DNA of 64,000 nt from Hormiphora californensis (taxonomy: Eukaryota > Animalia > Ctenophora). The stretch lies in NCBI GenBank assembly GCA_020137815.1, contig CM035359.1, forward strand, positions 5,208,001-5,272,000, given 5' to 3'. Shown piece after piece: positions 37,710 through 63,316 of the stretch. Both the position numbers and the translations under genes were made by a program. How positions within the stretch are numbered: the stretch's first letter is position 1; each line of letters starts with the position of its first letter. The notes below the pieces were generated by a model, which was not told the origin of the DNA, made no database searches, and worked only from the letters and a program-made list of their open reading frames with translations.

Positions 37710-40200
37710 CTATATAACATGAGTTACAATCTGAACTACGGGTTCCTGACCCTAACTACAACTGCCATGGGGATATCGGCTAGTGTTTACACAGCCACTC
37801 TCCTCGGTAAAAAGTGCAAGAAACTGGGAGTGAGACATGTACTACAGTCCACTGAACTTCAGATAGTCTTCTGGGATATCATTCGATGGTAAGTGAACAG
37901 CTAATTCATAATATGAGACATATTTTGAGAGAATTATATTCAATGCAATTGAATTGTTTCTATACTGACAAATTTTCTGATATAATTTATGGAGACGTCT
38001 CTAAGTTCTATATATATCGAATTACAATGACTATGACGACTGTTTCATGTAACTATTTAATGACGATTCTGTCTCTGCCTCAGTTTGACGCTTGGTCTAG
38101 TAACCGGTATCTACCGAACCTCCCACCACGATAACCAACAACCGGCCCTGTTTTGTAATGTGGTGGGGCCCATAACGCACCTCTCCATGCGCCTTCCCTT
38201 CTTCCTTGGTGCTGCCAGTCTGGTGGGGGAGTGGTGCCCTAGAGTATCAAAAGTCATCATTGTACTAGGGTGAGTGATATAATCACTAGTTAATTGGTCG
38301 ACTTAACTTAATTAGTGCATTCAGCAGCAGTAGACTATAGTAGCTAAATGAGACGTGAGACTTGACTCCAATGTGAATAAATCTTAAGTTTTAACCTAGA
38401 ATAGTTACTTAAAAAGTTACTGATATTGATTAACTAGTTAATTAATTTATAAATTTGTCCTAGATATTTGATAAGTATCGCTCTGGCGGTTATTCCCTTC
38501 CCCTTTGGAACTAACTACGAGTACGGTATGGATGGATTTTGCACCTACTACGCGGCGTATTTCACTAAATCCCGTGATCACGAGGTAAATAATTAGTTAA
38601 TTATTATGCAGTTTAATTAACTAACAAATTAATTAGTTGGTGACCCCGTTGGTGACTTATTTAATTAACCTTTCTTTCTTCAGTTCATGTTTTTGCTGGA
38701 CGTTCTTCTTAGCGCAGTACCATTCCTTCTCGCTTTCGTCGCTCTTGCCCTCGTGTTCCTAGTGACCTACTTCAAACAGCAAGGTAATTGACAAACGAAC
38801 AAACAAACAAACAAACAAACAAACAAACAATCAGACTTGCAATCAACACCTATTCCTTGTCTACCTAAGACCCCCTCATTTGCATTCCTCAACTGTTATC
38901 ATAGCACTGGCAAGTGCCCCGGGCCCAAAAGGGGGGTGTGGGGGCACAGCCCCCACCATAAACGGGGGTGTGGGGGCAGAGCCCCCACCTTAGAAATACC
39001 CTCTAGGCCTCTAACTCAAAAAAACAAAAGAGAGAGCACACGCAACACTTCTACACACTTAAGCGCGTGAAAACCTGCCAGTGCTACTATATACCATTGC
39101 AGATTTCGGGGTTTTTGATGCTTTAAAAAAGCATGTTCCAGATGAAGTAGAGAGCTGAAATTTTGTACTCTGAGGGCCCTCATATAGGAGAAGAGGCATA
39201 CAAATTTTCGGAACGATCGGATGTAAGGTAAAAATTTGCCAGAGGGGTCCCAAAATGCAAAAATGTAAGGAGGGGGAGGGGAGGGGGAGGGGGAGGGGGA
39301 GGGGGAGGAGGACGCTTTTTTATCTTTGAGTGTTCTCCTAAACCACAAATAGTAGAGACTTGCCGTTTGGAACAGTGGTTCCTTACATCATTGCGCTCGG
39401 TAATAGCTGTGTGAGAACTTCGAAATCGCCATAGTTCATTAATTATTCATTATTTAGTCATTAAATATTCATTTTAACTATGGTTGCGATATGACACGAC
39501 ATGAAGGTCATAAAGACTTAAAACCGGTCTAATTCGACGCCGTTATTTGCATATTTATGCACCGATTCATGATTTAATGCATATTCTGAATATTTCCATT
39601 TCGGCTGATCCTAGAACGTTTTCATAAACATATTTCGACGCAAAATAGCCGATTTATGGGGGGTCTTACTCGGGACAAAAATCTCTATCTGGCACCGTTA
39701 AGCCGTTATTTGCATATTATGTACCGATTCATGATTTAATGCATATTCTTAATATTTCCACTTCGGCTGGTCCTAGAACGTTTTCATGGACATATTCCGG
39801 CGCAGAATAGTCGATTTATGGGGGGTCGTCCCCCTGACAAAATATCGTATCTCTCACCATTTAGTCATTATTCGCATATTTATGAATTATTCAAATTCGA
39901 AAACATGCAGAAATCAGAAAAAATAGTTTTTCTATTTTACACCAAAAAGAACAGAAATTTAGTCCAAAAACCAATTAAATAAATTAGTTTGGATGCCCGG
40001 GCCCATGTGGTGTCACGGGGGTAACACCTTTAGGCTACTGTCATAAATGATGGATATCGAGAGAGATTAAGGCAAAGGAAATTAGGATAGAAAGAGTGAG
40101 ATATAATCAAGAAAGACGGAATGATAAATAAGAGGAGAGAGAGAAAAAGAGAGATATAGTGAAAGATACAGTGAGAGAGAAAGAGAGAGAGAAATAGTGT

Positions 40201-41784: not shown

Positions 41785-42364
41785 AGCGACTCCTAGATTC
41801 TTAAACCAACCTGAGAAAAGATGATGATTAAGATGATGATGATCAAGATAATGATAGATAGCAGATCAAGAAAGGAGTAAAATCTGAACTACCACAGACA
41901 ATATTTGAAGTTGTGATGTAAAATGAGCTTGCTTACAGATAGGAGAGAAAGAGAAAGACTCTTAGTTTGTAGGCTGTTGTTAATATTTGAGAGCATCATA
42001 TCGAACCATCAAGTGTGCAGTGTGATATCAGGGTCGGATTATCATACTGGGGGAAGAGACAAGGTTATAGTGGATTATATGGTTGGGTGATTTGAAGTTG
42101 AATATGTGTCACTACCAGTGAGGTTTACACATATCGAAAAGCCAGGTGATACCACACTTTCTTGTTGTTGTTACTCAACAAATGCTTTCCGGGATTCCCA
42201 GATCGGAGGGGCGAGATGCCAGTCAGCTATCAATGTTAGTAGTGTTTGTTGTGTGATTGCACCTGGTTAGAACATTGTGTTAGACGTTTCGTACCCGTTT
42301 CGTATTGAATATTCAACATTTTATATGAGGTGTCTGAAAAAATACTTGGGGCAACAGTCATATA

Positions 42365-43912
42365 CAAGGTGGCCCATAAATTATGATAGCGGGAGACGAG
42401 CCGTACCTCCGAAACGGTGATAGTTGTGCAAAAACAAACTACGGAAACATGCTGGAACAATTCCTGGACAGCTTTTTGCAAATTTTGAATTTTTTATTCA
42501 AAAGTTCATTTTTCATTCATGAACTTTCTACACGTTCATTAATGAATTAAGGACTCTAATTTACCGAGAGTGAGGCATTTTGTTTGGGTTGAATTTATCT
42601 TTCCAATGAGCACCATAAAAATCAAATTGAAGCACCAGGTCACATGGCAGTTGAGAAAATGCACATGCATGATTTTGGCTATTCCTGCGACTTTCAATCG
42701 GCTGTATCACGACTACCTTTTGTTCAATCATTTTAAAAATTTGGGTGAACATCGGATAACCAAAGATCTTTCCTCACAAGAAAAATCAAAGTCAAAACTC
42801 AAAGTTCATTTTTAAGTGTTGGTAGTTCATTCCACTCATTCAGGAACCAACATCCCTAAAGTGATGAAAAGTGATGGTTTTTGTTTGGCCCATACCCTGC
42901 AAAGATAGAGAGGTGTAAAAATACGTTTCCGGGCTAGTTAGTGGGTGTCCATGTGATCATGATGATATCTGACACCTTTTCCGAGCCATAATTATGGGAT
43001 TTTCTCAAATTCAAGCATGTGATTTGAGTTTTCTGTGATTGGTATTGTGCAGCAATGTTGAGAGATCTCATAGCACCTCAAAAATGATGATTAGTTCAAT
43101 GATTTATGATCGAAAAGATTAAAACAGACGTCAAAATGAACCAAATGATCCTTTTCGATCATAAATCAACTCCTTTCATTGAACTAATCATCATTTTTGA
43201 GGTGCTAGGAGATCTCTCAACATTGCTGCACGATACCAATCGCAAAAAATCAAATCACGTGCTTGAATTTGAGAAAATCCCTTAATTATGGCTCAGAAAA
43301 GGTGTCAGATGTCATCATGATCACATGGACACCCACTAACTAGCCCGGAAACGTATTTTTACACCTCTCTATCATTGCAGGGTATGGGCCAAACAAAAAC
43401 CATCAGTTTTCATCACTTTAGGGATGTTGGTTCCTGAATGAGTGGAATGAACTACCAACACTTAAAAATGAACTTTGAGTTTTGACTTTGATTTTTCTTG
43501 TGAGGAAAGATCTTTGGTTATCCGATGTTCACCCAAATTTTTAAAATGATTGAACAAAAGGTAGTCGTGATACAGCCGATTGAAAGTCGCAGGAATAGCC
43601 AAAATCATGCATGTGCATTTTCTCAACTGCCATGTGACCTGGTGCTTCAATTTGATTTTTATGGTGCTCACTGGAAAGATAAATTCAACCCAAACAAGAT
43701 GCCTCACTCTCGGTAAATTAGAGTCCTTAATTCATTAATGAACGTGTAGAAAGTTCATGAATGAAAAATGAACTTTTGAGTAAAAAATTCAAAATTTGCA
43801 AAAAGCTGTCCAGGAATTGTTCCAGCATGTTTCCGTAGTTTGTTTTTGCATAACTATCACCGTTTCGGAGGTACGGCTCGTCCCCCGCTATCATAATTTA
43901 TGGGCCACCTTG
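42365..43912. mobile_element. 1.55-kb foldback (near-complete palindrome) Tc1/mariner-type element, TA TSD
   Basis: TA|CAAGGTGGCCCATAAATTATG...CATAATTTATGGGCCACCTTG|TA, with ~750-bp arms carrying a few mismatches (mirror ORFs 42561/43525 and 42570/43462). Confidence 0.9.
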
Positions 43913-44789: not shown

Positions 44790-45566
44790 CTAAACATCAC
44801 CCAACTCAAAGTCTTCAGGTTCAATCTTTAAATCCCCATCAATCAGCCTATCAGTGGGCTCCATGATACTATGATTAGGGTCCATGATATTCGGGTCAAT
44901 ATACTCCATCATGTGTGTATTCTGGACACCAGTACCAGCCAGATCAGGGAAGGCAGCCAATAACTTGGACATGTAATCAATACTCTTCCTCGCTCTCTTC
45001 TTCCCCTTGCCCCTCTTTCCCTGGTCCCCTCCACTCCTCACTCCCAACTTCTTCATTTTCGTTCTGCACCTCTTGTTTTTCAGGTAATTCTTGATCTGGG
45101 TGAGGGTGAGTCCAGTCGCCTCCACCATACTAACGTGGTCCTCAGGCCGGAGGTAGTTGTATGTCAAGTAATAGGTGTCCAGGACTCGCCGCTTCTGTTC
45201 GTCAAAGAAGTTGCCAGGAGAGTATTTTGTGGCACGAAGGGATGGTGGTAGTTCGTGAAGTTTGTTCTGCCGGATCCGGTATCTAGGAGATAATGAGAGG
45301 GTTAGCAAAAAAGGTGGGGGTAGGAGAGGAGAATTAGAAAAGAGGAAAAGGGCACTGCACCGAATTCCGATCTAAGTGCACTGTCGCGTGCTCAGATTAC
45401 GAATATCAAAATGGGGTCTGATTCAGGCCAGTGATGTACCTTTGAGTGGGTGTCAGTGTGTCCAGACCCTTCTCTTGTTTGGCTCGTTCGTACAGAGAAT
45501 TATACCACATATCTTGTAGGGGTGTATGGTCCGTGGGCTGAAAGGGGAGAGAGAGAGTTAGGGGCA

Positions 45567-45646
<80 letters not shown>

Positions 45647-45836
45647 TTAGGGTATTATGGCCACATAAAATAACATTGTGTCACACTACTCCCACGTGAC
45701 TTTTGGACCCCGCCCCCACACAATACCTGGAAAATAGCAAGTTTCAGGTGACGCTGGAGCTCATCCCAATCCTTGGCAATGTAAAGTTGGCGTGCGGCGT
45801 GGAAGGCCTCGCAGGCACTAACGTGATCGATAATAC
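44790..45836 (-). CDS. Divergent SIX (SINE-class) homeobox module; exons 45836-45727, 45537-45440, 45282-44790; starts at a phase-1 acceptor, no start codon found
   Basis: Spliced product (G)IIDHVSACEAFHAARQLYIAKDWDELQRHLKLAIFQ|PTDHTPLQDMWYNSLYERAKQEKGLDTLTPTQR|YRIRQNKLHELPPSL...FFDEQKRRVLDTYY...EATGLTLTQIKNYLKNKRCR: the C-terminal part of a SIX domain plus a K50 homeodomain. Confidence 0.85.
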
Positions 45837-47842: not shown

Positions 47843-47858
47843 CTCCTCTCTCTCTCAG

Positions 47859-48166
47859 CTACTCATTCATCTTATGAATTAGCCTCTCATGTGAAGCTCT
47901 ATTGGATTTAGTTCCAAAGAGTTTGCTACAATGGCGACACCTGAAAGGCTTTATCTTAAAATGAACCAGTCTCTGGTGCCGTTTTACGTCACGGACAGGT
48001 TTCCAACAGATGTTACACATGGCACTAGTGCAGTTAGGATTGGCAGGATACTGGGGATAATCAGTCTCTACAACTACTGGTGGTGAGAAAGCAGCCCCCG
48101 GTCTATTCTCAAACACAGTGCTCTGGAAGGAAGGCCGACCACGGGGTCTCCCAACACGAGCAGTAT
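47859..48166 (-). CDS. ZnF terminal exon Z1 (AT-hook GRPRGRP plus 2 C2H2 fingers)
   Basis: ttcccttctacag|AT ACT GCT..., phase 1; CNICWKPVRDVKRHQRLVHFKIKPFRCRHCSKLFGTKSNRASHERLIH, then stop. Confidence 0.88.
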
Positions 48167-48329
48167 CTGTAGAAGGGAATCACGATGTGTTTTGCAAAGT
48201 GAGAGATACACTAATTTGTGTCGAATGTCCGTTTTTATAGGCGGCTATAGAACTTTTAGTTTTGGAAGCAATTTAAATAATTCCAAGGACTGTTTGTCGA
48301 AGGGGAATTGTCTCTTTTACCTTCTCGAT

Positions 48330-48589
48330 TTATGATCTCTTGTGTATGGCTCTCTCGTGGGAAGCCCTATTGGAGTTAGTTCCGAAGAGTTTATTACAAT
48401 AATGACACTTGTAAGGCTTAATCTTATAATGAACCAAAATCTTGTGTCTCTTGACATTTAGGACAGATTTCCCACAAAGATCACACTTGCTACTGAGACT
48501 GTTAGCGTTTAATGGGTAATCAGGCTCTACGACTAGTTTGAAAGCTGCACCGTCCTCCATTGTAGAGGTCTGAAGAGTACTAACAACAT
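48330..48589 (-). CDS. ZnF terminal exon Z2 (2 C2H2)
   Basis: tgattttccag|AT GTT GTT..., phase 1; CDLCGKSVLNVKRHKILVHYKIKPYKCHYCNKLFGTNSNRASHERAIH. Confidence 0.88.
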
Positions 48590-48992
48590 CTGGAAAATCA
48601 TGGTGCTTTATTTGGAAGTGAGGGATAACTTTTTGTGTTACATGCAGATTTGAATCGATAACTAAGGCAGCAGATTACGGATCCCTAATTTATCTCCAGG
48701 ATTTTACTCCTCGATCCTGGAGTTGCGCTTTACAAAATTCAGTGAAATTGTGTACTTTCAAACAGACGAAACCCTCAAATCCCTCAGAAAAGCACATTAT
48801 ATATTCGTATTGCGCAAATCCAGGATTGAGGGGTAAAATCATGGGCTTCTTTTCAATCGGGGATCTGTAATCCCCCGTGTAAAACGTTTTCTTCTGGAAG
48901 TATTTTCGAATTCTGACTCGCTAAAAAACCGATTAGGAAAGCTCAAGCAAGGTGTCTTTTTACAGTCTCGAAATGTTCGTATAGTTCCCCTT

Positions 48993-49276
48993 TTAAGATG
49001 TTTTCTCGTGTATACTTCTCTCGTGAGATCTCCTGTTGTACGTAGTACCAAAGAACTTGTGACAGTAACGGCACTTGAATGGTTTTATCTTGAAATGCAC
49101 CAAGTTTTGGTGCCTCTTCACATCGAGGACGGGCTTCCAGCAGATATCGCAAACCTTCCCACTCTCCAGATCGCGGTGTGGAAGAACTGGTTCAGTGGTC
49201 AGTGATTGAGGTGTTGCCCGAGTTCGGCTGCTTTGCCGTGAACCACGCCGCCCTCCCCGTCGCCAGAGGTCGACCG
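48993..49276 (-). CDS. ZnF terminal exon Z3 (2 C2H2)
   Basis: catcccccctccag|CG GTC GAC..., phase 1; CDICWKPVLDVKRHQNLVHFKIKPFKCRYCHKFFGTTYNRRSHERSIH. Confidence 0.88.
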
Positions 49277-49466
49277 CTGGAGGGGGGATGAAAAGTAGGA
49301 GAGAGTTCAACTGTTGAAGTACCAGTGGAGGTGGTAAGTATGAGAGTTTCATGCAACATAAGTTATGCAGTTTTGAATGGTAAATTTTGGTAAAGCAGAA
49401 AGTAAATCAAGGACAAATATAGCGGCGCCAATAAAATCTCCCACTCTCCGGCCACTCTACTCAGTG

Positions 49467-49705
49467 TTAAAGCTGGATATTAGATCCAAGGGGGGACTCA
49501 ACACAAGCCCGCTGGTAATCTAGTTGACGTTTATGAATATTTTTCTCGTGACTGAGTTTGTTTCCGCTCGTCCCAAAAGTTTTCCCACAATACCGGCACT
49601 TGTACGCCTTTATTTTGTAGTGGACAGTGTTCTTGTGGCGTTGCAGCTGGTACCGGGAGATGGTTTTGAAGCAAATGTCACAAGTCGCAACAGGACCTAT
49701 ACCAC
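49467..49705 (-). CDS. ZnF terminal exon Z4 (2 C2H2)
   Basis: ttttgttctacgcag|GT GGT ATA..., phase 1; CDICFKTISRYQLQRHKNTVHYKIKAYKCRYCGKTFGTSGNKLSHEKNIH. Confidence 0.88.
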
Positions 49706-49726
49706 CTGCGTAGAACAAAATGTTAA

Positions 49727-50397
49727 AGTAAGAGTGGCGCGCCGTGTTTTCTCACAAAACTTGGTGGATGAACGGGGAGTACCACCAGGACCATTGGTAC
49801 GGTATCGAAAATTTCCAATTCTGTCTCGTTCATTAGTTATGACGTAATATGTTCATTATTTCAACTTTCATAAAATTGCTCTACAGAAAAATCTGTTCAT
49901 TGTGGATTGAAATGGATGCTTGCATCGTGTTCAGCGTCAAAAAATAGCCGGGGTACCAAATTTTGGTGTCTCTACCTTGTCTGTGACGCGAGATATTGAC
50001 AAATATCAAAAACGACAAAAGTGAGAGAAAGAGACATTGTTACAAGTGGGTGGCGCGCACAAACAACTAGCACCCAAAGATAACAAACTCTCTTTCTCCC
50101 ATTTTTGGTCGTTTTTGATAATTGTCGATATCTCGCGTCACAGACAAGGTAGAGACACCAAAATTTGGTACCCCGGCTATTTTTTGACGCTGAACACGAT
50201 GCAAGCATCCATTTCAATCCACAATGAACAGATTTTTCTGTAGAGCAATTTTATGAAAGTTGAAATAATGAACATATTACGTCATAACTAATGAACGAGA
50301 CAGAATTGGAAATTTTCGATACCGTACCAATGGTCCTGGTGGTACTCCCCGTTCATCCACCAAGTTTTGTGAGAAAACACGGCGCGCCACTCTTACT
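49727..50397. mobile_element. Kolobok-like foldback MITE (TTAA TSD, AG..CT ends, ~290-bp perfect TIRs)
   Basis: TTAA|AGTAAGAGTGGCGCGCCG...CGGCGCGCCACTCTTACT|TTAA; lies ~20 nt upstream of the Z4 acceptor. Confidence 0.85.
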
Positions 50398-50498
50398 TTA
50401 AAAGTATTCAACTGAGGAATTTTTGTACTGACTACTGTGATTTTTTGTGAAAAATTCGTCGGCTTAAGGTTTCTACAAGAAATTTAGCGAGCTTACTT

Positions 50499-50710
50499 TC
50501 ACGGCTCATCCTCTTTTGTGCCAATTTGGTGTTGGCCCCTCTCGTGCCTAACCCTATTATAACTTTCACCAAATGTCCGAGGACAAAAGCGACACCGGAA
50601 TTTCCTGAGTTTTAAGTGGACGGTCTGCTGGTGCCGGCGGAGGTTGTTGAACTCCCTGCAACATATGTCACAGTAACTCCCCGCCGTGGAACCTGCAACA
50701 GCCTTTCTTT
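50499..50710 (-). CDS. ZnF terminal exon Z5 (2 C2H2)
   Basis: tgtacctttcag|AA AGA AAG..., phase 1; CDICCREFNNLRRHQQTVHLKLRKFRCRFCPRTFGESYNRVRHERGQH. Confidence 0.88.
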
Positions 50711-50990
50711 CTGAAAGGTACAAATTATATTGAACATCATGTGGGGCCAGGACTGGGGACTTAGAATGAACGTCATAAGGTGGAGGTGATTACAGGATTG
50801 AGTGAGACCAAAGTGTGGCTGATACGTGAAAGTTGGTGATAATAATCTTGAAAAATGAAACAAAATACACTCTACAGATACTTTGATTGACAGTTTTACT
50901 CGTAGTAACCTAACTCAACTACAGCTTGTAAAAAAAGAATTATAGTCTATCTACTCGTAACAAATATAGTAAAGTTGCAGTATAGTTTAA

Positions 50991-51322
50991 CTACTCGTAA
51001 TACACGTAATAAAGTGGCATGGGTGAGACGGGTCTATAATTAAAGTCAGCCCAATTAATAAATCCAGTTAACATCTCACTCCATCTCCACGTCTCTTGAC
51101 AGTTAACATAGGGGACAAACGGGAACATGAGATCCGGGTGAGTGAGAGAGCCACGTGGTCGTAATACTTGGTAGTACCGGACATGCTTCTTCTTCGGTGG
51201 CTGCAGTGTGGTGGCTGGTGGATGTGTGCTGGTGGAGGACTTGGTGGAGGACGACTTGATTGCGGTGGGAGTGAGTGTTTTGTTTGTTCGTTTCTTTCGC
51301 TTTGTCGCTACCATGACGTGTG
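50991..51322 (-). CDS. Orphan non-ZnF ORF in the array (basic NLS-like, Ser/Thr-rich, aromatic C-terminus); possible additional terminal exon
   Basis: 107-aa ORF MVATKRKKRTNK...; the upstream ctgttatag|CA CAC GTC ATG would be a phase-1 acceptor, but its pyrimidine tract is weak. Confidence 0.4.
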
Positions 51323-51769
51323 CTATAACAGTGTGTATACTGAGTGATTACTGTGGCCTGTGTAATACTGGGACTACAATCATGTTAGGAAGGTACGATA
51401 ATGAGTGTTATAATGTTACAATTTGACTTAATGCCTAACTCGACATTATATTTCAAAAAAAATCCAATAAGGCACGCTCCATAAGCGACTTAACAAAACT
51501 CGAACTCGATCAAGCTTGCTCTACTAAAGGCCATACATTTTTTGGCAAATTAATCAACAAGGCCATAAAAACATATAATATGTGAAGTCAGTTAGTCTGT
51601 TATATCGGTGATAATGAGTGCGTGTGTCGGATTTTCTGAAATTGTCGCCCCAAACGTCGAATTTTGTGGTACGCACACCACACCTTAAGATGTGATAGGC
51701 ACACACAAAACGAGTGCACGAGAAGGGGGGGGGGGTGGCAACTTCAAAAAATCCGACTAGTTTTGTGGT

Positions 51770-52023
51770 TTAGGGTCCTGTTCTGCGTGTTGCCTCATGA
51801 ATGATTTTCACTTTCTGTGTTCTCATCATCCTAACTTCCTCCGGGTTGTAATTGGGGTGAACTCTGTGGATGTGCTTCAGCCGGGTGGAGGGTGTGGCGA
51901 AAGATTCCTCACAATAAATGCACTTGTAAGCCCGGAGTTTTAGGTGGACAACGTTGATGTGACGCCAGACTTGGGATCGCCCGTAGGATGGGTTGAACTC
52001 TTTCCCACAGTACCTACAGGTCA
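51770..52023 (-). CDS. ZnF terminal exon Z6 (2 C2H2)
   Basis: catactttttcag|TG ACC TGT..., phase 1; CRYCGKEFNPSYGRSQVWRHINVVHLKLRAYKCIYCEESFATPSTRLKHIHRVH. No ATG before the fingers. Confidence 0.88.
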
Positions 52024-52638
52024 CTGAAAAAGTATGTTACCATGGTTACCACTGAAATGATCACCATTAAAGGACGCATTATGGCCGATCCCCTGGGTTG
52101 ATGTCTGATTCAAAATACTTGGTTTAAAGGTTGCACCTAAGTGTTTTCACGTCTTGTGTTGCTGTCTGCAGCCCTGAGTGGAAATGCCAACAACAGTGAA
52201 ATTACTGCATACGCTCGATGTCGTATTTCTAAGAGTTCAATGTTGTTAGCATAATTTCCAATCAGGGCTGAACAGGCAGCAAGATGCAGTGCGTGATTGC
52301 TACTATTACACCTTCCGAGAAAGGAGCATTATCAGGCTTCTCTCCAGGGGATCACCCATAATCCGCTCTCTACGACGAATAGTCACGAATGGTATAGTGT
52401 TTAGACGAAGAACAAAACTCTGATATAAATTTGTAATGATGGAAATTTTCTTCCGTCCAATTAAATCCCGCGTATATATATGTATATATTAGCTGCTTTC
52501 AAATCCCACACACTGATATAGAGTATTCACTACACACACGCACACACGCACACACACATTAGGATATAACACCCTTACTTTTCTCTCTTCCTCTCTCTTC
52601 CTCTCTCTCTCAATGTCCGGTTACCATGGTTACCACGG

Positions 52639-52877
52639 TTAGCGCTTTTTCTCAGTTCCCAACAAACTCATTTTCCTTATACGACAGTGTTTCTTCACGT
52701 GTCTATTCTTATTACTCTCGTCATTGAAAAACTGGAGACAAAACGAACACTGGTAGGGTTTTAGTTGTAGATGTTTGGTAAGCACATGGAGGACCCGCCG
52801 CTTTTGGGATCGGAAGGACTGACCACACTCTGTACACATGAGATTAAATTGCTCTTGATAGGCAGTAGAAGCAGATC
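52639..52877 (-). CDS. ZnF terminal exon Z7 (C2H2 plus C2H-H/C finger)
   Basis: atcaatactgcag|GA TCT GCT..., phase 1; CTECGQSFRSQKRRVLHVLTKHLQLKPYQCSFCLQFFNDESNKNRHVKKHC. Confidence 0.85.
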
Positions 52878-53081
52878 CTGCAGTATTGATGTAATTAGTC
52901 GCACTAATTATGTAATTAGCGGAGGTGTGCTTTAAATTGTGGGTCGGGCTTCAAACGGTGAGGGTGTAAAAATGGGTGGAAATTTTTATAGCGAGCGCTT
53001 TGAGTTTGCATGCAGAGCTATTAGTAACTAAAATTCCACCTGGACAAATAATGTTAAATTCCCAATGAACACACACACAAA

Positions 53082-53138
<57 letters not shown>

Positions 53139-53152
53139 ACACACTCATTTCC

Positions 53153-53370
53153 TCAAAGGTCCAGTTTCTTAAGCAGGAAGTTGCTTTTAACCATCTTGTT
53201 CAAACAGCTCTTTCTGTGACGACACAAATTAGCCGGTTGGTTAAACGACGCTCCACACCAATCGCAACTGTAGAGTTTTAGTCCGAGGTGAATAGCGTTC
53301 ACGTGCACTTTGAGAGGGTGTTTCGAGTTGAAGCCTTTGTTGCAGTAGGGACAGGGAAAGGGTTTATCTG
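53153..53370 (-). CDS. ZnF terminal exon Z8 (C2H2 plus C2HC)
   Basis: tacttttcag|CA GAT AAA (NAGNAG), phase 1; CPYCNKGFNSKHPLKVHVNAIHLGLKLYSCDWCGASFNQPANLCRHRKSC. Confidence 0.88.
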
Positions 53371-53608
53371 CTGAAAAGTATTGTTGTTGTTGATGATGGA
53401 ATCTTGTGATGATGATGATGTATTCTTGGAGAGTGATGGAATCTGGGTGTAAACATTCCAGGTCTCTGATGTGAACGGATTCAACGACAAGGTGGTTCAA
53501 TTTTTGGCGTAAGATAAAGTATAACATATAATAAGAATTTAGCATATAAAATTGTTAAAATAGCTTTTTTAAACGGCTCATTTTGGTAAAAATCACTCTT
53601 TCTCGCAT

Positions 53609-53787
53609 TCAAAAGGTGTTTTCATGCCGCTTCATATGACGTACAAGCGATGAATTATCTCTGAACCTATGACCACATAAACTACACACAGAGTTCTTGA
53701 TTCTCTCGTGAACACTTCGGTGGTGGCGCTGCCGCGAGCCGATCGAGGTGAAGGACATGTCACAAACACCACACAAGTAAAATATCT
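53609..53787 (-). CDS. ZnF terminal exon Z9 (2 C2H2; absent from the ORF track)
   Basis: ccccttttttcag|AG ATA TTT..., phase 1; hand translation IFYLCGVCDMSFTSIGSRQRHHRSVHERIKNSVCSLCGHRFRDNSSLVRHMKRHENTF*. Confidence 0.87.
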
Positions 53788-53913
53788 CTGAAAAAAGGGG
53801 GTGGGGTGGGGGTTGAGGGGGATCTGGATATATGTGACATGTGGGGGAATCTGGATGTGGAGTTGAAGGGGGATGTAAAATATTTATCTTACGATATATT
53901 ATAATGGATCTCT

Positions 53914-54119
53914 CTATGTATCTGATGGCAGATATTGAATAACTTTCTCTCTACAAGACACGGTCCTCTTGTGCCTCGCAAGGCTACTCTTATCACTAAA
54001 CATCCCTCCACAAGTGACACACTGGTGCTTCAGCTTGTGATGCACACTCTGGATATGACGTGACAGACTCGTTCGCGTCGAGTAACCTCTTCGGCACACG
54101 GGACATGTGAGTGAGAAGT
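53914..54119 (-). CDS. ZnF terminal exon Z10 (C2H2 plus C2HC-like)
   Basis: tgtttcttttcag|AC TTC TCA..., phase 1; CPVCRRGYSTRTSLSRHIQSVHHKLKHQCVTCGGMFSDKSSLARHKRTVSC. Confidence 0.88.
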
Positions 54120-54264
54120 CTGAAAAGAAACATAATAGAAGAATTATCAGCGTTTGTATGGGAGTGGATTTTATGGTGAGGAAATTCCGTAGAGAACACA
54201 AGAAACTAACGAAACGAAGGGACTCTACTACTCTCAGTTACTCTTAGACAGACAGACTATGAAC

Positions 54265-54300
<36 letters not shown>

Positions 54301-54306
54301 TCCAAG

Positions 54307-54590
54307 TTATACTATCATATTCTTATCGCACATCAGCTCATGCGTCATCAGGTCTACACCAGCGGTGAACCTTTCACCGCACTTCACACAGGGAACACCA
54401 TCGTACGGGGTCGACATTTGTGTCTGTTGGCATCTCTTCTCGTGTCGAATCCTATTACTTGGATCACTGAACTTTTTCCCGCACTTTTTACACGAGTAGG
54501 GCTTCAGGCCAAAGTGAATACCGTTAACGTGGACAGTAAGCTTGTGTTGCGACGAAAAGGCTTTAGAGCAGTGGCAGCAAATATGGATTT
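54307..54590 (-). CDS. ZnF terminal exon Z11 (3 fingers: C2H2, C2HC, C2HC; absent from the ORF track)
   Basis: tttttccgacag|AA ATC CAT..., phase 1; IHICCHCSKAFSSQHKLTVHVNGIHFGLKPYSCKKCGKKFSDPSNRIRHEKRC...CVKCGERFTAGVDLMTHELMCDKNMIV*. Confidence 0.87.
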
Positions 54591-54730
54591 CTGTCGGAAA
54601 AATATATAATTAGTGAAGATGTCAACTTAGTGAAAACGTGAGGAGTGTTTTTCGCCGCATGAGCAAATATATAAAATTTTTGGGACGTTGATAAATGTTT
54701 AAAAAAAGTGTAAAACCACTAATCTCGAAA

Positions 54731-54951
54731 CTAATTTCTCATTCTCAGTCCATCTCTGGCGACTTCACGGCCGTGTGATCGTCGCATATGCGTGTACATG
54801 CTGCCACTCTGGGCGAAAGTTGAATCACAGTATCGACACTGGTATCGCTTGATGCGCAAATGGACCGTGTCGATGTGCCGTTGGAGCACACTCGCACTTG
54901 AGTATTTGTTTTTGCAAACGGGACATCTTCTGTTGTCTTCTGGGTCCCCCG
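54731..54951 (-). CDS. ZnF terminal exon Z12 (2 C2H2)
   Basis: tatcgtttcag|CG GGG GAC..., phase 1; CPVCKNKYSSASVLQRHIDTVHLRIKRYQCRYCDSTFAQSGSMYTHMRRSH. Confidence 0.88.
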
Positions 54952-55089
54952 CTGAAACGATATAGTACATGTAGATGAGAGAATAAATATAGCAACAAGT
55001 GGTGAACACAGCGAGGGAGATGGTGTGATGTGTGTCTGAATTTACCACGACGAGTCACGTGATGCCCATATATGGTGTTGTGTGTCTCG

Positions 55090-55329
55090 TTATCCAGGCT
55101 GATCTTTCCGGATTTTAAAGCTAGGATCTTTCCTCTTAAGCTCGCTAAAAAGTACAGGATGGACCCTCCTCATGTGTTTTATCATATTCCCACTCTCCCC
55201 ACTCCTCACAGTCACAAAATGAACATTTGTACGGTCTTTCACAGAAGTGTGTCGTAGAGACGTGTCGGCGGAGGGACGGTCTGGAGCTGAACACGTGTAG
55301 ACACATGTCACACACGTGTTGCTGCCTTC
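55090..55329 (-). pseudogene. ZnF terminal exon Z13 with a +1 frameshift in finger 2 (pseudo-exon or consensus error)
   Basis: actccctctgcag|GA AGG CAG..., phase 1; RQQHVCDMCLHVFSSRPSLRRHVSTTHFCERPYKCSFCD, then after one extra base at ~55210 VRSGESGNMIKHMRRVH...*. Confidence 0.75.
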
Positions 55330-55496
55330 CTGCAGAGGGAGTTGGTAGCTAAGAGAGGGCACACAGCGTCATGCGATGGGGTGCGAGCATGCTCTAAATT
55401 TAAACACCAATATATTTGGGCGGTTTTGAGAACAATTAGATTTTACAAGCAATTAGCAAATTAGCGCATAAAGTTTTGTGTATAAGAATAGTCTTA

Positions 55497-55726
55497 TTAA
55501 ATAAAATTTCTCCGATTTTTCTCAACAGATATCCCGTGAACCCTCCTCTTGTGGGAGTCTCTATGGTCAGTTCTGCTGAATCGTTTTCCGCACACATCAC
55601 AGCCATAGGGTCGGAGTTTAAAGTGAACTGCATCGATATGACGCTTGATTTGACGCTCAATCCACCGGTTACAGATAGGGCAGTGGCCAGGCTGGTTGTC
55701 TCGAATTGGAAAGGGATAAACGTATC
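55497..55726 (-). CDS. ZnF terminal exon Z14 (2 C2H2; correct frame absent from the ORF track)
   Basis: atgtgtttcag|GA TAC GTT..., phase 1; YVYPFPIRDNQPGHCPICNRWIERQIKRHIDAVHFKLRPYGCDVCGKRFSRTDHRDSHKRRVHGISVEKNRRNFI*. Confidence 0.87.
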
Positions 55727-56022
55727 CTGAAACACATGCGTTCAGTGGATGTGGTGAATTTCAAGATCACACCGCGCTCTCGCACAAGTCTCTTGTTGGT
55801 TCGTCCAAAATTCAAAGTCGGTGGTTTACTTGAAGAAAACATTTAAAGCAAGAAATCCCCAAGAAATCTTAAAACATTTAAAGCAAGAAAAGTCTTTTGA
55901 TCAAAAACCACTCTCACTTAGCTTAGAATATAATATGTATACGACAGATATAAAGACAATACAGTTTTTTTGAGAAAGAGTCACAAAGATGTCAAGCCCA
56001 AGTGAGTTTTTCGCCATTATTT

Positions 56023-56246
56023 CTAAACTATTTTCGGATTCCACACAACTTGATGTTTGTTAAGCATGTGTCTACGCATTTGATTACTCCGCCTATATGT
56101 CATACTACACAGTTCACATTTATAAGTTTTCCTTTTCATGTGTACGTCGAGGATGTGATGACGTACTTTCTTTATCTTTTTGAAGCAAATCGGACATTCT
56201 CCGGGCCCTCGCTCCCAGTCTTCTTCCTCCCAGTGAGGTATCTCTA
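56023..56246 (-). CDS. ZnF terminal exon Z15 (2 C2H2)
   Basis: tcactccccacag|TA GAG ATA..., phase 1; CPICFKKIKKVRHHILDVHMKRKTYKCELCSMTYRRSNQMRRHMLNKH. Confidence 0.88.
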
Positions 56247-56476
56247 CTGTGGGGAGTGACAAGGGCCCAGTTACAAAATAGGAAACTGACACCAGGTTCC
56301 TGATGACATTTGCCTGACCCGTACACACGCGACGCAACGTTCGAAACATTTTACATTGAAAGTTGAACCGTGTAGTGTCAGCAAATGCACAGCATGGTTC
56401 ATCAGGAATCTCCCTTCTGGAACCTGGCATCAGTTTCCAGTTTATAACTGGAGCGTAAGAATAAAGGGAGGGGGTA

Positions 56477-56527
<51 letters not shown>

Positions 56528-56749
56528 AGTACCTCCATGAATAGCCGTGGATTGAGAATAATTAAAAAATTCAAAAGCTTTATCATACTCTCAAAAAAAA
56601 CTATGTTACAAGTCTTTAGATCAAAAACCACTCTCCCTTAGAATAATGTGTTACATGTATAAGACATAGACATGAAAAGCTACATATTACTTTTTTGACA
56701 AAAGGCACAAAGATGTATCATCGGCTGCAAGTGAGTTTTTTTTTCGCCA

Positions 56750-56967
56750 TTATTTCTCGACTATCATCGGATTCCACACAATTTGATGTTTCTTAAGCAT
56801 GTGGTTCCGTATCTGATTACTCCGACTAAATTTCATGCTACAGACATCACATTTATATGTCTTCAATTTCATGTGAACCTCGAGGATGTGATTCCGTACT
56901 TTCTTTATCTTTTTGAAGCAAATCGGGCATTCTCCCCCTCGCCGCGTGGGAGGAAAGTCTATTTCCA
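56750..56967 (-). CDS. ZnF terminal exon Z16 (2 C2H2; recent paralog of Z15)
   Basis: tcactccccacag|TG GAA ATA..., phase 1; CPICFKKIKKVRNHILEVHMKLKTYKCDVCSMKFSRSNQIRNHMLKKH. Confidence 0.88.
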
Positions 56968-57411
56968 CTGTGGGGAGTGATTAAGATCAAAGGAGGGGGT
57001 ATGAGGGAGGGAGAGAGTCAAGAGAACCTTAATGAACAGCTGTAGCCGTGGGTTGAGAATTATTTGAAATTTTTTAAAGCATTACACCCAGTTACAAATT
57101 GGAAACTGACATCAGGTTCTATTAGGAGCGCTTAGATCATGCACATGCAATTTAGATTTTAGGTTACTGTCACGGTTTGCATGGAATCAAAAAATGACCC
57201 CAAGTTTTTTGTAGATCTCGATAGGATCTTTCGAAAACCTGAAGGTCATTTTTTGATTGGAGGTGAAATGAAGGAGCTATGACAATGTGCATGGTGCGTG
57301 ACTTTTGGCGTGAACTGATATAAGCGTTCCTATTATCACGTGACAAAAATTTCAATGCGAATTGCATTGAAAGTAGCGCTGCATGTAATTGACATGAATC
57401 ATCATTCCGCT

Positions 57412-57978
57412 GGGGGGGTAATCATGGTGACAAATGGTGACAAATGGTGACATATGGTGACAAATGGTGATGGTGACATGACCAAAATTTTGGGATGAGT
57501 CACCATTTGTCACCATTCTCTCTGGAGCTTCCTACAGGCATAATATGGTGTTATGGGAGACTGGCGGACACTTCTACCAAGTTTCAAGTCGATTGGATGT
57601 AATTAAGGGGTCACAGGTGGTTAATTGCGCTTTTATGTGTTGTGCGAGGGAGGTACACCCTCAACGTGACTTTCGGGAAGTTTTAGCGGTCCAAAACACT
57701 ACTAGCCGATCCGGAATGGCCATGTTAAAAACTTATGAACAGATATATCGGTCTAAAGAAATTAAAAAATTTTATCAAATTTCTTTAAAAATTTTAAAGA
57801 AATTCTGCCGAAATCCGCATATTTCGTCAAAAAATGGAGACAAATGGAGACAAATGGTGACAAATGGAGATAAATGGTGACAAATGGTGACAAATGGTGA
57901 TGGTGACATACCCTAAATGGTCAGATGAGTCACCATTTGTCACCATTTGTTACCATTTGTCACCATGATAACCCCCCC
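57412..57978. mobile_element. G-run/C-run-ended element with GGTGACAAAT subterminal repeats; TSD ATTCCGCT
   Basis: (G)7TAATCATGGTGACAAATGG...CCATTTGTCACCATGATAA(C)7 with an 8-bp (9 with the shared C) flanking duplication. Nested inside a larger element (~57088-58013) with CCAGTTACA...TGTAACTGG ends. Confidence 0.8.
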
Positions 57979-58079
57979 ATTCCGCTTAGATGTCAGGTTC
58001 CAATCTGTAACTGGAGCCTTACAGGCCTTAATCATACTCTAAAAAAAATGTCGATGATAACAAGTTCACTCTCATATAT

Positions 58080-58288
58080 TTACAGGCCTATTCGCTTCAG
58101 TTTATATCCTATGCCATGGACCCTTTTCCGATGGCTATCTCGATTGTTACTCTGTGAAAACTCCTTCCCGCACTGATCGCACTTGTAGGGCCGAATCTTT
58201 AGGTGGACATCGTGTACGTGGGACCGGAGTCTCTTGAAGTTTCTGTTGCAGAGACGGCAGAAACCATTCCCCACCGATATCTGGTGAA
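58080..58288 (-). CDS. ZnF terminal exon Z17 (2 C2H2)
   Basis: ccttcctatccag|TT CAC CAG ATA..., phase 1 (a second AG 8 nt downstream would be phase 0); CRLCNRNFKRLRSHVHDVHLKIRPYKCDQCGKEFSQSNNRDSHRKRVH. Confidence 0.86.
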
Positions 58289-58373
58289 CTGGATAGGAAG
58301 GTAAGGAGTGAGGCGGTGCTATGATGGAACGACACAATGCGGAACAAAAGCTGTTGCCAGCATGAGGCGGACA

Positions 58374-59733
58374 GGGGGGGGGGCCCGCGTATTAAAATGT
58401 CCTTTAATGTCCCTCGATTTTTGGGACATTAAATTGTCCGGGGTAATTTGGGACATTAAAAGACATTAAAGGACATTAAAGGACAAGAAATTTTAACTAA
58501 TAAAAACCATTTCACAATGTGTTACCAAACATTTCTACCACCAATGTACTACTAAAGGTCCCATCTTTCGATTCCAATGAATGTTCATAAATGTTCAGTG
58601 GTGATGAGGCTTTACTTTTGCGTGGTACGTGGGTGCGGTACCTTTTTTACATGTGCATATCTCTAGTCTCAAAATCATCTTATGAAACGAGTAGAGAAGA
58701 CACCGAAGTGAGAAAACAGCCCCGATTTTGATGAAACTTGGTCAGAATAGTGTTTGGTGTCTAATTGGAAGTCAAAAAAGATTTAGTACTCAAATCCTTA
58801 ATTTACGATTTTTAGGTTTTTTAGGTTTTTTTTTACTGTTTTTGGCTTCAGGAACGTCCTAGAACAAAATGAATAGTACCATCTTTCTCAGCGTGAAATT
58901 CTGCATAGATTTTAGTGGCTATAAACCTTTCTATGACGTAAGGTTATCCCCAAAAAATCCCAAACGGGTACATGTTATAGGGGCGGGTACATGTTTTAGG
59001 CTAACGGGCGAACCTCTGGTCAGAACACCATGTTATAGGTACTCAATCGACGTGTATTGATGAGGAAATCATTTTAGTGAAAACCATTTTGATCTGCGAT
59101 GTCTGTGTAACGAATAAAACCTAAAAAACCTTACCACATGAAGCATACCCGTTTGGTTTTTTGGGATAACTTCTGAACCTTACGACTACGTCATAGAAAG
59201 GTTTATAGCCACTATAATCGATGCAGAATTTCACGCCGAGAAAGATGATTCTATTTATTTTGTTCTAGGACGTTCCTGAAACCCATAAAAGCCAAAAAAC
59301 CTAAAAAAACCTAGAAAAACCTAAATTTAGAATTTGAGCACTCAAAATTTGTTTGACTGCTAATTAGACACCAAAGACCATTCTGACTTAGTTTCATCAA
59401 TATCGGGGCTATTTTCACTTTAAAACCTTGACATTTAGTCCAAAACTTCAAAATTTCCGGGGTTCGCTTAGAGGTACCGGGCCACCCTAAAATGAGGCTT
59501 AATCACCGCCAACATCTATGGTATTGGTTGGAATCGATAGAGGGGACATTAGAAGTAAATATTAAGTGGTTGAAAACACCATTTTAGTTTAATAATAGCG
59601 GAAAATTCATGTTTTAATTAAATGTCTTTTAATGTCTTTTAATGTCCTTTAATGTCCTTTAATGTCCCAGGGACATTAAAGTCGGACGTGTTTATTTAGG
59701 ACATGGATATTAAATTCACGCGGGCCCCCCTCC
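58374..59733. mobile_element. G-run/C-run-ended foldback element with GGACATTAAA subterminal repeats; TSD GGCGGACA
   Basis: (G)10CCCGCGT...ACGCGGGCCCCCCTCC with an 8-bp flanking duplication and long imperfect internal inverted arms. Confidence 0.8.
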
Positions 59734-60014
59734 GGCGGACACGTGTTTCAACGTTGTACTGGAGTACATCGCCCCAAGTAATCGTCCCGTAGATCAGGGA
59801 GAGTTGAATGAAAAAGCGTTTTGTAAGTATGGATATGAGTTGAGTCATATCAAAAATTCCAGGGGCGTAAATTACTAACTGGCCAATTCTCCCACACTCA
59901 AACACACTCACAAACTTTCCCAAAATTCAGTTTTTATTACAAGTTGCTTGGCGGCAACTTCCAGAACCACTAACATTGTTTTTAACAAGATCAGTGTACA
60001 ACAAATATCCCAGG

Positions 60015-60223
60015 TTAAGGTTCCGTGGAGCCATTCCACTCAATTTGATGTTGCGTCCTCATGTGAAGTGACTTGTTGAACTTCCTCTTGAAGCTCTTCC
60101 CACAGATTTCACAATGAAACTTCCTTTCATTAACATGGACATCTCTCATGTGTGATGTGAGTCGAACGTAGCTTCTCCCACAGAGGTCACAATACCCGCC
60201 TCCTGCACCCGCTCTCCTGAGTT
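60015..60223 (-). CDS. ZnF terminal exon Z18 (2 C2H2; absent from the ORF track)
   Basis: ctcttcacaccccag|AA CTC AGG..., phase 1; LRRAGAGGGYCDLCGRSYVRLTSHMRDVHVNERKFHCEICGKSFKRKFNKSLHMRTQHQIEWNGSTEP*. Confidence 0.87.
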
Positions 60224-60325
60224 CTGGGGTGTGAAGAGATAAAGTAAGGTGAGGTGGAGAGGTGACGTACTTTGATGATCATGATGTGGAGAGATACACT
60301 TGGATTGCGGTGTGGAGGGAGAGAA

Positions 60326-60384
<59 letters not shown>

Positions 60385-60570
60385 GTGAGAGCGGGTGATC
60401 TATGCAACCACGAGTGTCGGTGCCCCAATATTTAAACGACGGCTAAAACGCAATTTCTTGCCAAGTAGTAGTAACAAAAGTTTTCACAGTTATCCTAACA
60501 CACAAATATAGATACTCTCAAACACACACAAACACACAGACACACCCACGCACAAACATTTTGTTTTTAT

Positions 60571-60830
60571 TTAGGTTCTAGGAGCACGGAATCTCGATTT
60601 AACACTGCCCTTCTCCCCCTTTTCCATAGCCAGAAGATCCTTGTGCTTACTCCTCATGTGCAACAACCTATTTCCACTCTGTCCAAAGGTCTTCTCGCAG
60701 TAAAAACACTGGAAGGGTCTCATTTTTAGATGTACCGTTGTTATGTGTCGACTTAACGAGCTAAAGGAGTAGAGACAATAGGGGCATACGTTGGAACCGT
60801 TGGTAGCAGGGCTGGAGGAGGAGAGACGTC
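60571..60830 (-). CDS. ZnF terminal exon Z19 (2 C2H2; absent from the ORF track)
   Basis: ccccctccctcag|GA CGT CTC..., phase 1; NVCPYCLYSFSSLSRHITTVHLKMRPFQCFYCEKTFGQSGNRLLHMRSKH...APRT*, with AATAAA overlapping the stop. Confidence 0.87.
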
Positions 60831-62201
60831 CTGAGGGAGGGGGAGTTGTAGTGTGGTGTCACACTCAAACACTGCATGCACAATCAAATGTGAAAAGTGG
60901 GACTTGTGTAGCTCTCACCCTGTGTGTGAGGGTAGATCAAGGAAGGACTCTGTTGACTAGCGCAAATTTGACGGACAAAGTAACACACACACATCACACC
61001 ACACACAGCCACACCACGATACATGATAGGGGATATTGAATACAACATCAATACACACATTATACATACGGACACACAGTTGATTCTACTCTCTCTCACT
61101 CTACTTCTACCTAGTATTCCTAGTCAATCCCCTCTTTCTCTCTTATAGCATGTAGTATAAACCACGCCCTCCACCCACTGTTGCTTCATAGCAACGATCA
61201 CATTCCGGTCTCTCTGCGTGTCAAGAAATCTTCCCACGCTCCCTCTCTGTTTTCTAGGGAGCCCTGTGCGCGGCGCTTTACGCGCGGAATATCCCTCCAA
61301 ATTAGGAATACTTTGCTTTGTATGAGTGCCATCCCCGGGTCGTGCTAGTTGTGAGGGTGATGTTGCAGTAATGTCCCGTTTGCTCTCTATAACTGCCGCC
61401 TTGCAGCGAGGGGGAACAAAGGAAGAAAGCTGCTGCAATTGACATGGCGGGAAAACATAAATAGTAATAGGAGGAAATATATGTAAAATATATAGAATTC
61501 AATTCAAACACATGTGTCATGTTTTTCAAAAAAAAAGAGTCAATAACAAAAGTGACACAAGAGAGAGAAAGCTATCTGCAGATACTGTGGAGCGATATAT
61601 ATATATCAATATTACATATACAAACCTACACACATAAATCTCCCTCAATCATTCTCTCCTTCTCTCTTTCTCTGGCTGCTGGCGATCCTCTTCTCACTCC
61701 CGACTCTCTCTGTTTTCTCAAAATTTTAATTCGCAAGGGCTCGCCAATTTTAGTGCTGTCCTTAGTTTAAATTCTTCATTTTTGGTATCAAAAACATTTC
61801 ATGAAGCCTGGTCTATCTCTCACTGAGTGTGTTTGCGTGTGTGCTGTGAGAGATAGATCAGTAGTTTGAGATGTGTGTAGTTTTGTTCTATGGAAATTGA
61901 TTGCTGGTTGGCCCACCTACTTACACGGGGGAGAGAGTGCGAATTTTATTTGATGTGAGGCTGCATGCAGTGAGAAAAAACAAAACGACGCAAAGTTCCC
62001 TGGAGAGAGAGAAATAGATAGAGATGGGAGAGCGAGGTGGGAGATATAAAGAAAGACAGAGATGGAGGGAGAAAAAGATAGTTTCTTTGCTTTGCGTCGT
62101 TTGAAAAAACAATCAATAATTTCAGCAGTTTTGTGATTGTGAGTGTTTAAGCAATGTCAAATGTGTGTTACCTTTTTTTGAGCTTCTGTAAATTGAACGT
62201 C

Positions 62202-62294
<93 letters not shown>

Positions 62295-62585
62295 GAGAGA
62301 GAGAGAAAGTCTTTGTAAGAGTCATAGTAAATTCTGTTAATTGTCGCTTTCTCCCTCTCTCACACTCTCTTTCTCTCATCAGTCATCCTCTCTAGTTTGT
62401 CTGCTTATCCTACTGCTTCCTCTCCCACGCACTTTCTCAGTCACTATTTCAGACTTAGCCAAGCACTTTCCCTATCTCTCTCTCTATCTCTCTCTCTCTC
62501 TCTCTATCTCTATCTCTCTATCTTACTACTCAACGAAGCAGAAAGGAAATTGGAACATGATTACTGAGTGTTACACACACATACA

Positions 62586-62627
<42 letters not shown>

Positions 62628-63002
62628 CTCTCTATCTCCCTTCTCCAATCAAGTCACACGGCGTGCGGTCAGTGGTCAGTCGCAAAGCTACCTACACTAA
62701 TGGAGTTAGGTACAAACAGACAAACTGACAGAAATTTACTTACAGGTAGAAAGAAAGATAGAGAAGGGATAGAGATAGATAAAAAGAGAGAGAAAAGGAG
62801 CAGCTGATAGTCACAATCCAATTCTATCATGATGATTGATTACCTTAGAGACGCGTCCAAGACAGACAAATTAAATTTGACACGAATCACCCAAATCAGC
62901 TCTGTCGCCGAAGGCCTTATAGATAACAAACGGATCTATTATAAAAACAAGAGTATTGTTCAACTGGTAAGAGTCCAAAGTTACCATGGTAACCAGTACA
63001 TA

Positions 63003-63316
63003 TCACCATAGTAACACTCTAGCAAGTTTTAACTCCGCCAACCTATCCTTCCTCCATCCCTCTTGTAACAGCTGTATACACCGTGTTATACTCTCAGTGA
63101 GGGAACACTTGGCAGCCTTCACCCTCTCATACCCAATCCTATCTACCACTGCCAGTTCTGCAATGGGTTTCAGCCGGTAGAAACTAGACTTGCTTACTCC
63201 GAGGGACTTGATGGCAACGTTTCGTGAGACCCCGGAAGAGAGGGCTGCCAGGACATAGTTGTAAAGGGGAGTTACTTCGTCGAGGTGCCGGATTGTTACT
63301 GGTCTTTCAGGTCGTT
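63003..63316 (-). CDS. CCDC106-like (HTH-like) domain terminal exon
   Basis: cccttctatcctctttag|AA CGA CCT..., phase 1; IRHLDEVTPLYNYVLAALSSGVSRNVAIKSLGVSKSSFYRLKPIAELAVVD...RCIQLL...LAELKLARVLLW*. It resembles the CCDC106 C-terminal domain as I recall it (PIAEL motif, RC, terminal LK..LL). Confidence 0.6.

Follow-up and report, generated by a model that had tools for sequence, protein, structure and literature searches.

An array of 19 same-phase zinc-finger end exons in the ctenophore Hormiphora californensis, probably the alternative ends of one gene

A 64-kb stretch of genomic DNA from the ctenophore Hormiphora californensis (contig CM035359.1, positions 5,208,001 to 5,272,000; here called the window) was analyzed with respect to a zinc-finger end-exon array at 47859..60830 on the minus strand. 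The array consists of 19 cassettes, 18 of which are intact and every one of which is terminated by a stop codon. AG was confirmed at all 19 acceptor coordinates given in a preliminary description of this DNA, and phase-1 entry at these sites leads into open reading frames of 58–101 amino acids (aa; 179–308 nucleotides (nt)) followed by the stop. The cassettes, referred to below by their acceptors, are as follows.

60571..60830, minus strand: two-finger C2H2 last exon, acceptor 60830, phase 1, 85 aa
60015..60223, minus strand: two-finger cassette, acceptor 60223, 68 aa
58080..58288, minus strand: two-finger cassette, acceptor 58288, 68 aa
56750..56967, minus strand: two-finger cassette, acceptor 56967, 71 aa; nearest paralogue 56246 (68%; ratio of nonsynonymous to synonymous substitution rates (dN/dS) 0.36)
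56023..56246, minus strand: two-finger cassette, acceptor 56246, 73 aa
55497..55726, minus strand: two-finger cassette, acceptor 55726, 75 aa
55090..55329, minus strand: cassette with a frameshift in finger 2, either a pseudo-exon, an allele or an error of the assembly
54731..54951, minus strand: two-finger cassette, acceptor 54951, 72 aa
54307..54590, minus strand: three-finger cassette (C2H2, C2HC, C2HC), acceptor 54590, 93 aa
53914..54119, minus strand: two-finger cassette, acceptor 54119, 67 aa
53609..53787, minus strand: two-finger cassette, acceptor 53787, 58 aa
53153..53370, minus strand: conserved cassette with two phase-1 acceptors in tandem (53370 and 53367); orthologues P0008, P0009 and L001
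52639..52877, minus strand: two-finger cassette, acceptor 52877, 78 aa; Met directly ahead of the first Cys
51770..52023, minus strand: two-finger cassette, acceptor 52023, 83 aa
50499..50710, minus strand: two-finger cassette, acceptor 50710, 69 aa
49467..49705, minus strand: two-finger cassette, acceptor 49705, 78 aa
48993..49276, minus strand: two-finger cassette, acceptor 49276, 93 aa; same clade as 48589 and 48166
48330..48589, minus strand: two-finger cassette, acceptor 48589 (ambiguous site), 85 aa
47859..48166, minus strand: final two-finger cassette, acceptor 48166 (48076 is phase 1 as well), 101 aa; AATAAA at 47729

A profile built from 18 cassettes was run against all six-frame stretches of the window and recovered exactly 19 frames, all on the minus strand and none on the plus strand, with the next match at an E value of 0.12. 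Pfam reported C2H2 fingers in all five cassettes submitted, weakly in one. Finger 1 closes with H-x4-H, and in 9/18 intact cassettes it takes a shortened form with 9 residues from Cys to His. The TGEKP linker was present in none of the 19 cassettes, and a stop follows each finger pair, which is not the arrangement of Kruppel-type proteins with serial TGEKP fingers in one frame. Translation and the profile search bear out the 19 minus-strand finger cassettes of 179–308 nt with a stop that the preliminary description had proposed, including the one with a third finger (54590) and the frameshifted one (55329). The linker that it had given, H-x3-[VI]H-[FLY]K[IL][KR]P[YF], is indeed of a non-TGEKP type, but it is a consensus and not common to all, with a strict match in 5/19. 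Palindromic or inverted-repeat elements resembling miniature inverted-repeat transposable elements fill the wider gaps within and close to the array (49723-50401, 58400-59700, 57100-58000 and 42360-43900), and a 330-nt duplication spans cassettes 56967 and 56246 including their tails.

For the phase test, all YAG sites from which the first Cys could be reached without a stop were enumerated for each cassette, and the best one was chosen blind to phase. On pyrimidine content alone, the best YAG gave phase 1 in 16/19 cassettes. A refined acceptor score (CAG bonus, AG penalty and a 150-nt limit), devised after this first result was known, gave phase 1 in 17/19 as against 29% for 13,136 anchors placed at random (P = 8e-8); the refined picks coincided with the originally noted acceptor in 16/19 cassettes, and the median acceptor score was 0.81 for the cassettes versus 0.57 for the null. 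These blind picks agree with the earlier claim that all cassettes can be entered in phase 1. The cassette lengths of 3n+2 put forward with it only restate phase 1 plus a stop, and the claim that only one cassette (Z17) has a competing AG in another phase did not hold: an open out-of-phase YAG, mostly weaker, was found in 14/19. Ambiguous acceptors are those of 53370 (tandem partner 53367), 48589 and 48166.

Cassette sequences were then compared with each other. Median identity over the 171 cassette pairs is 29%, and 18/19 frames are still intact. Among the 14 closest pairs, five could be estimated and gave dN/dS values of 0.16–0.55, the remaining nine being saturated at synonymous sites; the zinc ligands are all retained despite this saturation. 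Judged from these comparisons, the cassettes are under purifying selection. The description of them as very divergent with kept zinc ligands stands, and a dN/dS near 1, which together with a lack of expression had been named as evidence to the contrary, was not the outcome, either among the paralogue pairs that could be estimated or against the orthologous locus described below (0.064). Some neighbours in the cassette tree also adjoin in the genome (56967 and 56246; 49705 to 48166), as expected under tandem duplication.

Protein searches with cassette 53370 returned two matching proteins, P0008 (74%) and P0009 (91%), in both of which the likeness begins at the acceptor position and the front is unrelated, resembling intron read-through. 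In a metagenome scan, 1 of 16 loci (L001, 1113 nt) was a true orthologue of cassette 53370, and the other 15 were dropped as generic finger matches. L001 carries the orthologue behind a homologous phase-1 acceptor (window site 53367), with 79% nucleotide identity over the exon and 46/54 residues identical (dN/dS over 54 codons as above). On the 3' side of this cassette, 266 nt without a donor-like site lead to a second phase-1 acceptor (L001:482), followed at 482-1023 by a start-less 179-aa last exon that encodes a FLYWCH domain (PF04500, above the cut-off with E = 3e-10) and a tail of low complexity ahead of its stop; the first Met of this exon is residue 57. FLYWCH was not found anywhere in the 64-kb window. 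From its sequence, we infer that L001 comes from a ctenophore. In a related species, cassette 53370 and its acceptor are conserved from the array and occur together with an end exon of the FLYWCH type. From the viral and from the prokaryote collections a single short match was obtained, in each case attributed to chance, and the ESM Atlas, searched with the cassettes, yielded generic C2H2 clusters only.

A further counterpart was found among the FLYWCH rows of Table1.XLSX in PMC10027918, of which 14/16 for Mnemiopsis and 16/16 for Pleurobrachia were covered. The FLYWCH listed for the Mnemiopsis model Ml_2682000 is identical by eye to that of L001 at 53/61 positions, and the model, compared over 400 of its 679 residues, opens with a finger pair that is identical by eye at 18/34 positions to the first half of cassette 55329. 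Two phase-1 YAG sites lie closely ahead of the first Cys in the cDNA printed for this model. Over the part compared, Ml_2682000 appears to be a wrongly joined part of this array from a lobate, in which such cassettes are fused. Lobates and Hormiphora diverged about 180 million years ago according to part of PMC12221973.

The reading that we favour is that the array would supply a single ctenophore gene with its variable end, made up of 19 duplicated and diverged exons. A constant 5' coding region, likely located beyond 64000 and ending in a predicted phase-1 donor, is probably spliced to one of the many cassettes in each mRNA, and about 18–20 proteins would result, with a common front half and different predicted DNA-binding ends. 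We infer the shared donor, the single cassette per transcript and the distinct DNA targets. Because all cassettes lie on one strand, choice of an alternative last exon in cis is the default guess, and trans-splicing as in mod(mdg4) is also conceivable. The array may have grown by tandem exon duplication and by capture of transposase-type DNA-binding domains (FLYWCH and possibly a CCDC106-like helix-turn-helix (HTH)).

Several observations weigh against this reading. The constant exon was not found, and neither was a BTB domain, the 20 minus-strand open frames of 60.9-64 kb being without a Pfam match; no full-length protein with the front half surfaced in the protein searches. Some out-of-phase YAG is open in the 14 cassettes mentioned above, and a possible private exon running from an ATG to a donor is present in 7/19 upstream gaps. 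AATAAA occurs no more than 400 nt past the stop in 3/19 cassettes, plus one overlapping a stop, so that there is no clear sign of separate 3' ends. Only one cassette (53370) has firm orthologues in other species, and the neighbour of this conserved cassette differs, being C2H2 in the window and FLYWCH in L001. Contigs from RNA runs aligned to 47845-52570 (6/19 cassettes) showed no joints and carry no weight for or against splicing; two X1 contigs cross acceptors 49276 and 52023 unspliced, so X1 may be DNA, and one X2 contig matches 67 nt of a finger sequence at below 90% identity. Taken as a whole, a constant front joined to one cassette is partly supported, and no finding contradicts it.

Within the array or next to it are three more minus-strand exons compatible with phase 1, with acceptors 63316, 51322 and 45836.

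63003..63316, minus strand: candidate extra cassette, CCDC106-like HTH last exon, phase-1 acceptor 63316, no in-frame Met
50991..51322, minus strand: 109-aa open reading frame inside the array, phase-1 acceptor, though an early ATG of its own is present
44790..45836 (45836-45727, 45537-45440, 45282-44790), minus strand: divergent homeobox of the SIX class, with phase-1 entry into the first visible exon

The HTH exon matches PF15794 with E = 4e-4, below the cut-off, and shows 40% identity to P0002; a competing phase-0 acceptor is located at 63350. Two distant relatives, P0002 and P0004, were noted for it. Membership of the 50991..51322 frame in the array is uncertain. It has a basic front, an aromatic tail and no Pfam match, and its nearest ESM Atlas clusters are small DNA-virus capsid pieces (0.82-0.88), a lead only. 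For the homeobox, the best solved-structure match was SIX1 (E = 1e-5); its visible exons are without the SIX-domain front, and helix 3 is without the usual Trp. It may well be a separate gene rather than an extra cassette, and an expansion of SIX genes is reported for ctenophores in part of PMC2959044. Together with the spliced-leader copy described below, this SIX gene speaks for a ctenophore as host, probably one of the Hormiphora/Pleurobrachia group.

Among the alternatives, the one that survives best, although we regard it as unlikely, is a tandem cluster of tiny genes, each opened by a spliced leader or a private micro-exon, with the phase inherited from a duplicated two-exon gene. A spliced-leader gene copy is present in the window at 9050-9110 on the minus strand, where the 25-base Hormiphora californensis leader motif is exact at 9068-9092 (0 matches in 100 shuffles) and 43/44 bases of the leader printed in PMC8527503 match by eye; the covered part of the same paper puts the ctenophore leader on at least 56% of Iso-Seq reads. 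The seven gaps with a possible ATG-to-donor exon would also suit such a cluster, as would an in-frame Met between the acceptor and the first Cys in 3/19 cassettes. Yet the printed leader is without an AUG and imposes no phase. Small genes resolved by the leader would be expected to have an AUG of their own for the whole protein, whereas the first AUG downstream of the acceptor encodes both fingers in only 2/19 cassettes. In 12/19 upstream gaps, many of which measure just 126–280 nt, no coding first exon private to the cassette (ATG, open frame and phase-1 donor) was found, and ATG-to-donor exons over the 21 gaps tested ended in phase 1 (8), phase 0 (5) and phase 2 (6) at similar frequencies. 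The unrelated FLYWCH exon of L001, moreover, has the same phase, no start and a donor-free gap ahead of it; with unrelated domains (C2H2 and FLYWCH) behind one phase, descent from a single two-exon gene is insufficient. Donor-like sites within the frames occur in 5/19 cassettes, mostly inside or ahead of the fingers, and are unable to chain cassettes. The AUG, gap and donor counts are in keeping with the preliminary description, in which most cassettes had no in-frame ATG ahead of the first Cys and were taken to be neither stand-alone genes nor serial exons.

One ordinary gene ending in the conserved cassette 53370, with the other cassettes mostly unused duplicates, is slightly less probable again. 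Close relatives were obtained for this cassette alone in the protein and metagenome searches, one cassette is frameshifted, and poly(A) signals are few. Against this, 18/19 frames and the zinc ligands have been kept despite synonymous saturation, the acceptor scores lie above the null, and a second cassette type has a counterpart in Mnemiopsis.

The search for the front half produced four small candidate exons bounded by AG and GT.

60919..62935 (62935-62844, 62185-62172, 61999-61925, 60949-60919), minus strand: four small AG-GT bounded exons, candidates only

As a constant or leader part these exons are a lead only. Were they alone the front, or were several genes to feed sub-blocks of the array, the products would be small finger proteins without a large common domain, a reading to which we give little credence. 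The four segments have canonical sites, three are able to exit in phase 1, and one donor lies 88 nt before the first acceptor; they have no convincing start and no known domain, though, the phase fit can be chance because they were chosen from about 22 donor-like sites, and the phase-1-compatible HTH last exon sits further upstream. Longer proteins were also sought by sequence. The HTH-exon search retained 0/2726 candidates, and a representatives search with the same exon gave four matches, two of them CCDC106-like proteins without a common front. The 18-cassette profile search for a full-length relative retained 3/82 candidates, and that with cassette 53370 retained 2/5, both start-less read-throughs. 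One model from P. bachei, Pb_2657527, combines a different FLYWCH with a RING-type front, which we take to be of the Polycomb type, and is presumably either a true fusion or a mis-joined model. It was rejected as a hint to the constant region, as nothing in the part of the source covered links it to the array (PMC10027918 supplement 3, FLYWCH row 58).

That the cassettes are consecutive exons of one long poly-zinc-finger protein, as their common strand and close spacing could suggest, is next to impossible given the stop in every cassette, the few and mostly misplaced internal donor-like sites and the lack of TGEKP linkers.

Elsewhere in the window, a 1.7-kb tandem repeat with a 10-base unit (1-1690) lies ahead of the last seven exons of a TPR-repeat gene on the plus strand (1817-3677), presumably CFAP70/TTC18-like. 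A 604-aa reverse transcriptase frame (RVT_1, E = 2e-29) marks an element resembling a long interspersed nuclear element on the minus strand (24324-26135), and a membrane-protein gene with short exons is located at 38450-38810 on the plus strand.

Beyond the window, we tentatively raise the possibility of a phylum-wide ctenophore gene whose origin would date back about 180 million years or more, to the time of the cydippid-lobate split or before it. It would have a non-BTB front and ends consisting of C2H2 pairs, FLYWCH, CCDC106-like HTH and perhaps SIX, would be independent of lola and mod(mdg4), and would maybe use gene-to-gene trans-splicing beside leader trans-splicing. If the favoured reading of a constant front with one cassette per mRNA is true, a layout published mainly for arthropod BTB genes would also exist in the animal lineage that branched off first or second, with both of the end-domain types found in arthropods (C2H2 pairs and FLYWCH), and convergence versus ancient origin would be testable from the front half. 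Ctenophores would then have a compact route to many transcription factors, and ctenophore gene models and transcription-factor counts at the locus would be wrong (fused or split). One would also have to ask how some 20 free acceptors escape capture by the spliced leader.

No publication describing such a ctenophore locus was found in a search that left subscription papers and genome annotation files outside its scope, and the Hormiphora Iso-Seq annotation may contain the isoforms. The closest published material within ctenophores is the FLYWCH expansion reported by Mukherjee and Moroz in 2023 (PMC10027918), in which Ml_2682000 bears the L001-type FLYWCH together with a cassette-like finger pair. 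In the parts of that paper covered, however, the FLYWCH models are treated as separate transposon-derived genes, alternative ends find no mention, and the other ctenophore rows have no common front. CTEP1 and CTEP2 (PMC12221973, in part) are likewise C2H2 proteins specific to ctenophores and serve as loop anchors, but they are serial multi-finger proteins; as relatives of the cassettes they were rejected, with no likeness seen by eye in the part of supplement 5 compared.

Outside ctenophores, lola has about 20 isoforms, 17 of them with differing C-terminal C2H2 fingers on a constant front, and its TTK-type BTB is reported to be arthropod-specific (PMC11426971, in part). To these many C2H2 ends correspond the 19 one-strand, two-finger, one-phase end exons seen here. 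In contrast to lola with its arthropod TTK-BTB front, the host is a ctenophore, no BTB was found in 60.9-64 kb, and splicing is proposed. As the TTK-BTB is reported to be specific to arthropods and was not found here, the array is not classed as lola or mod(mdg4). Broad, fruitless and tramtrack also have two-finger end exons with non-TGEKP linkers, with far fewer ends and an arthropod BTB front. For mod(mdg4) of Drosophila and Lepidoptera, 30–41 variable 3' ends, mostly FLYWCH, have arisen by tandem exon duplication (PMC4667647 and PMC13490949, both in part), and the variable exons lie on both strands in Drosophila and Lepidoptera but not in Anopheles (PMC4667647, in part). Its FLYWCH ends are matched by the FLYWCH end exon in the related ctenophore array of L001. 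Unlike mod(mdg4), whose exons occupy both strands and have promoters of their own and whose trans-splicing is obligate, the present array has 19/19 cassettes on the minus strand; C2H2 predominates, and the Hormiphora host additionally uses spliced-leader trans-splicing. Shared with both systems are a large array of start-less terminal exons with one entry phase and variable exons that encode C2H2 pairs, as in lola (in the window), or FLYWCH, as in mod(mdg4) (in L001), and on this comparison the array likely works in the manner of lola and mod(mdg4).

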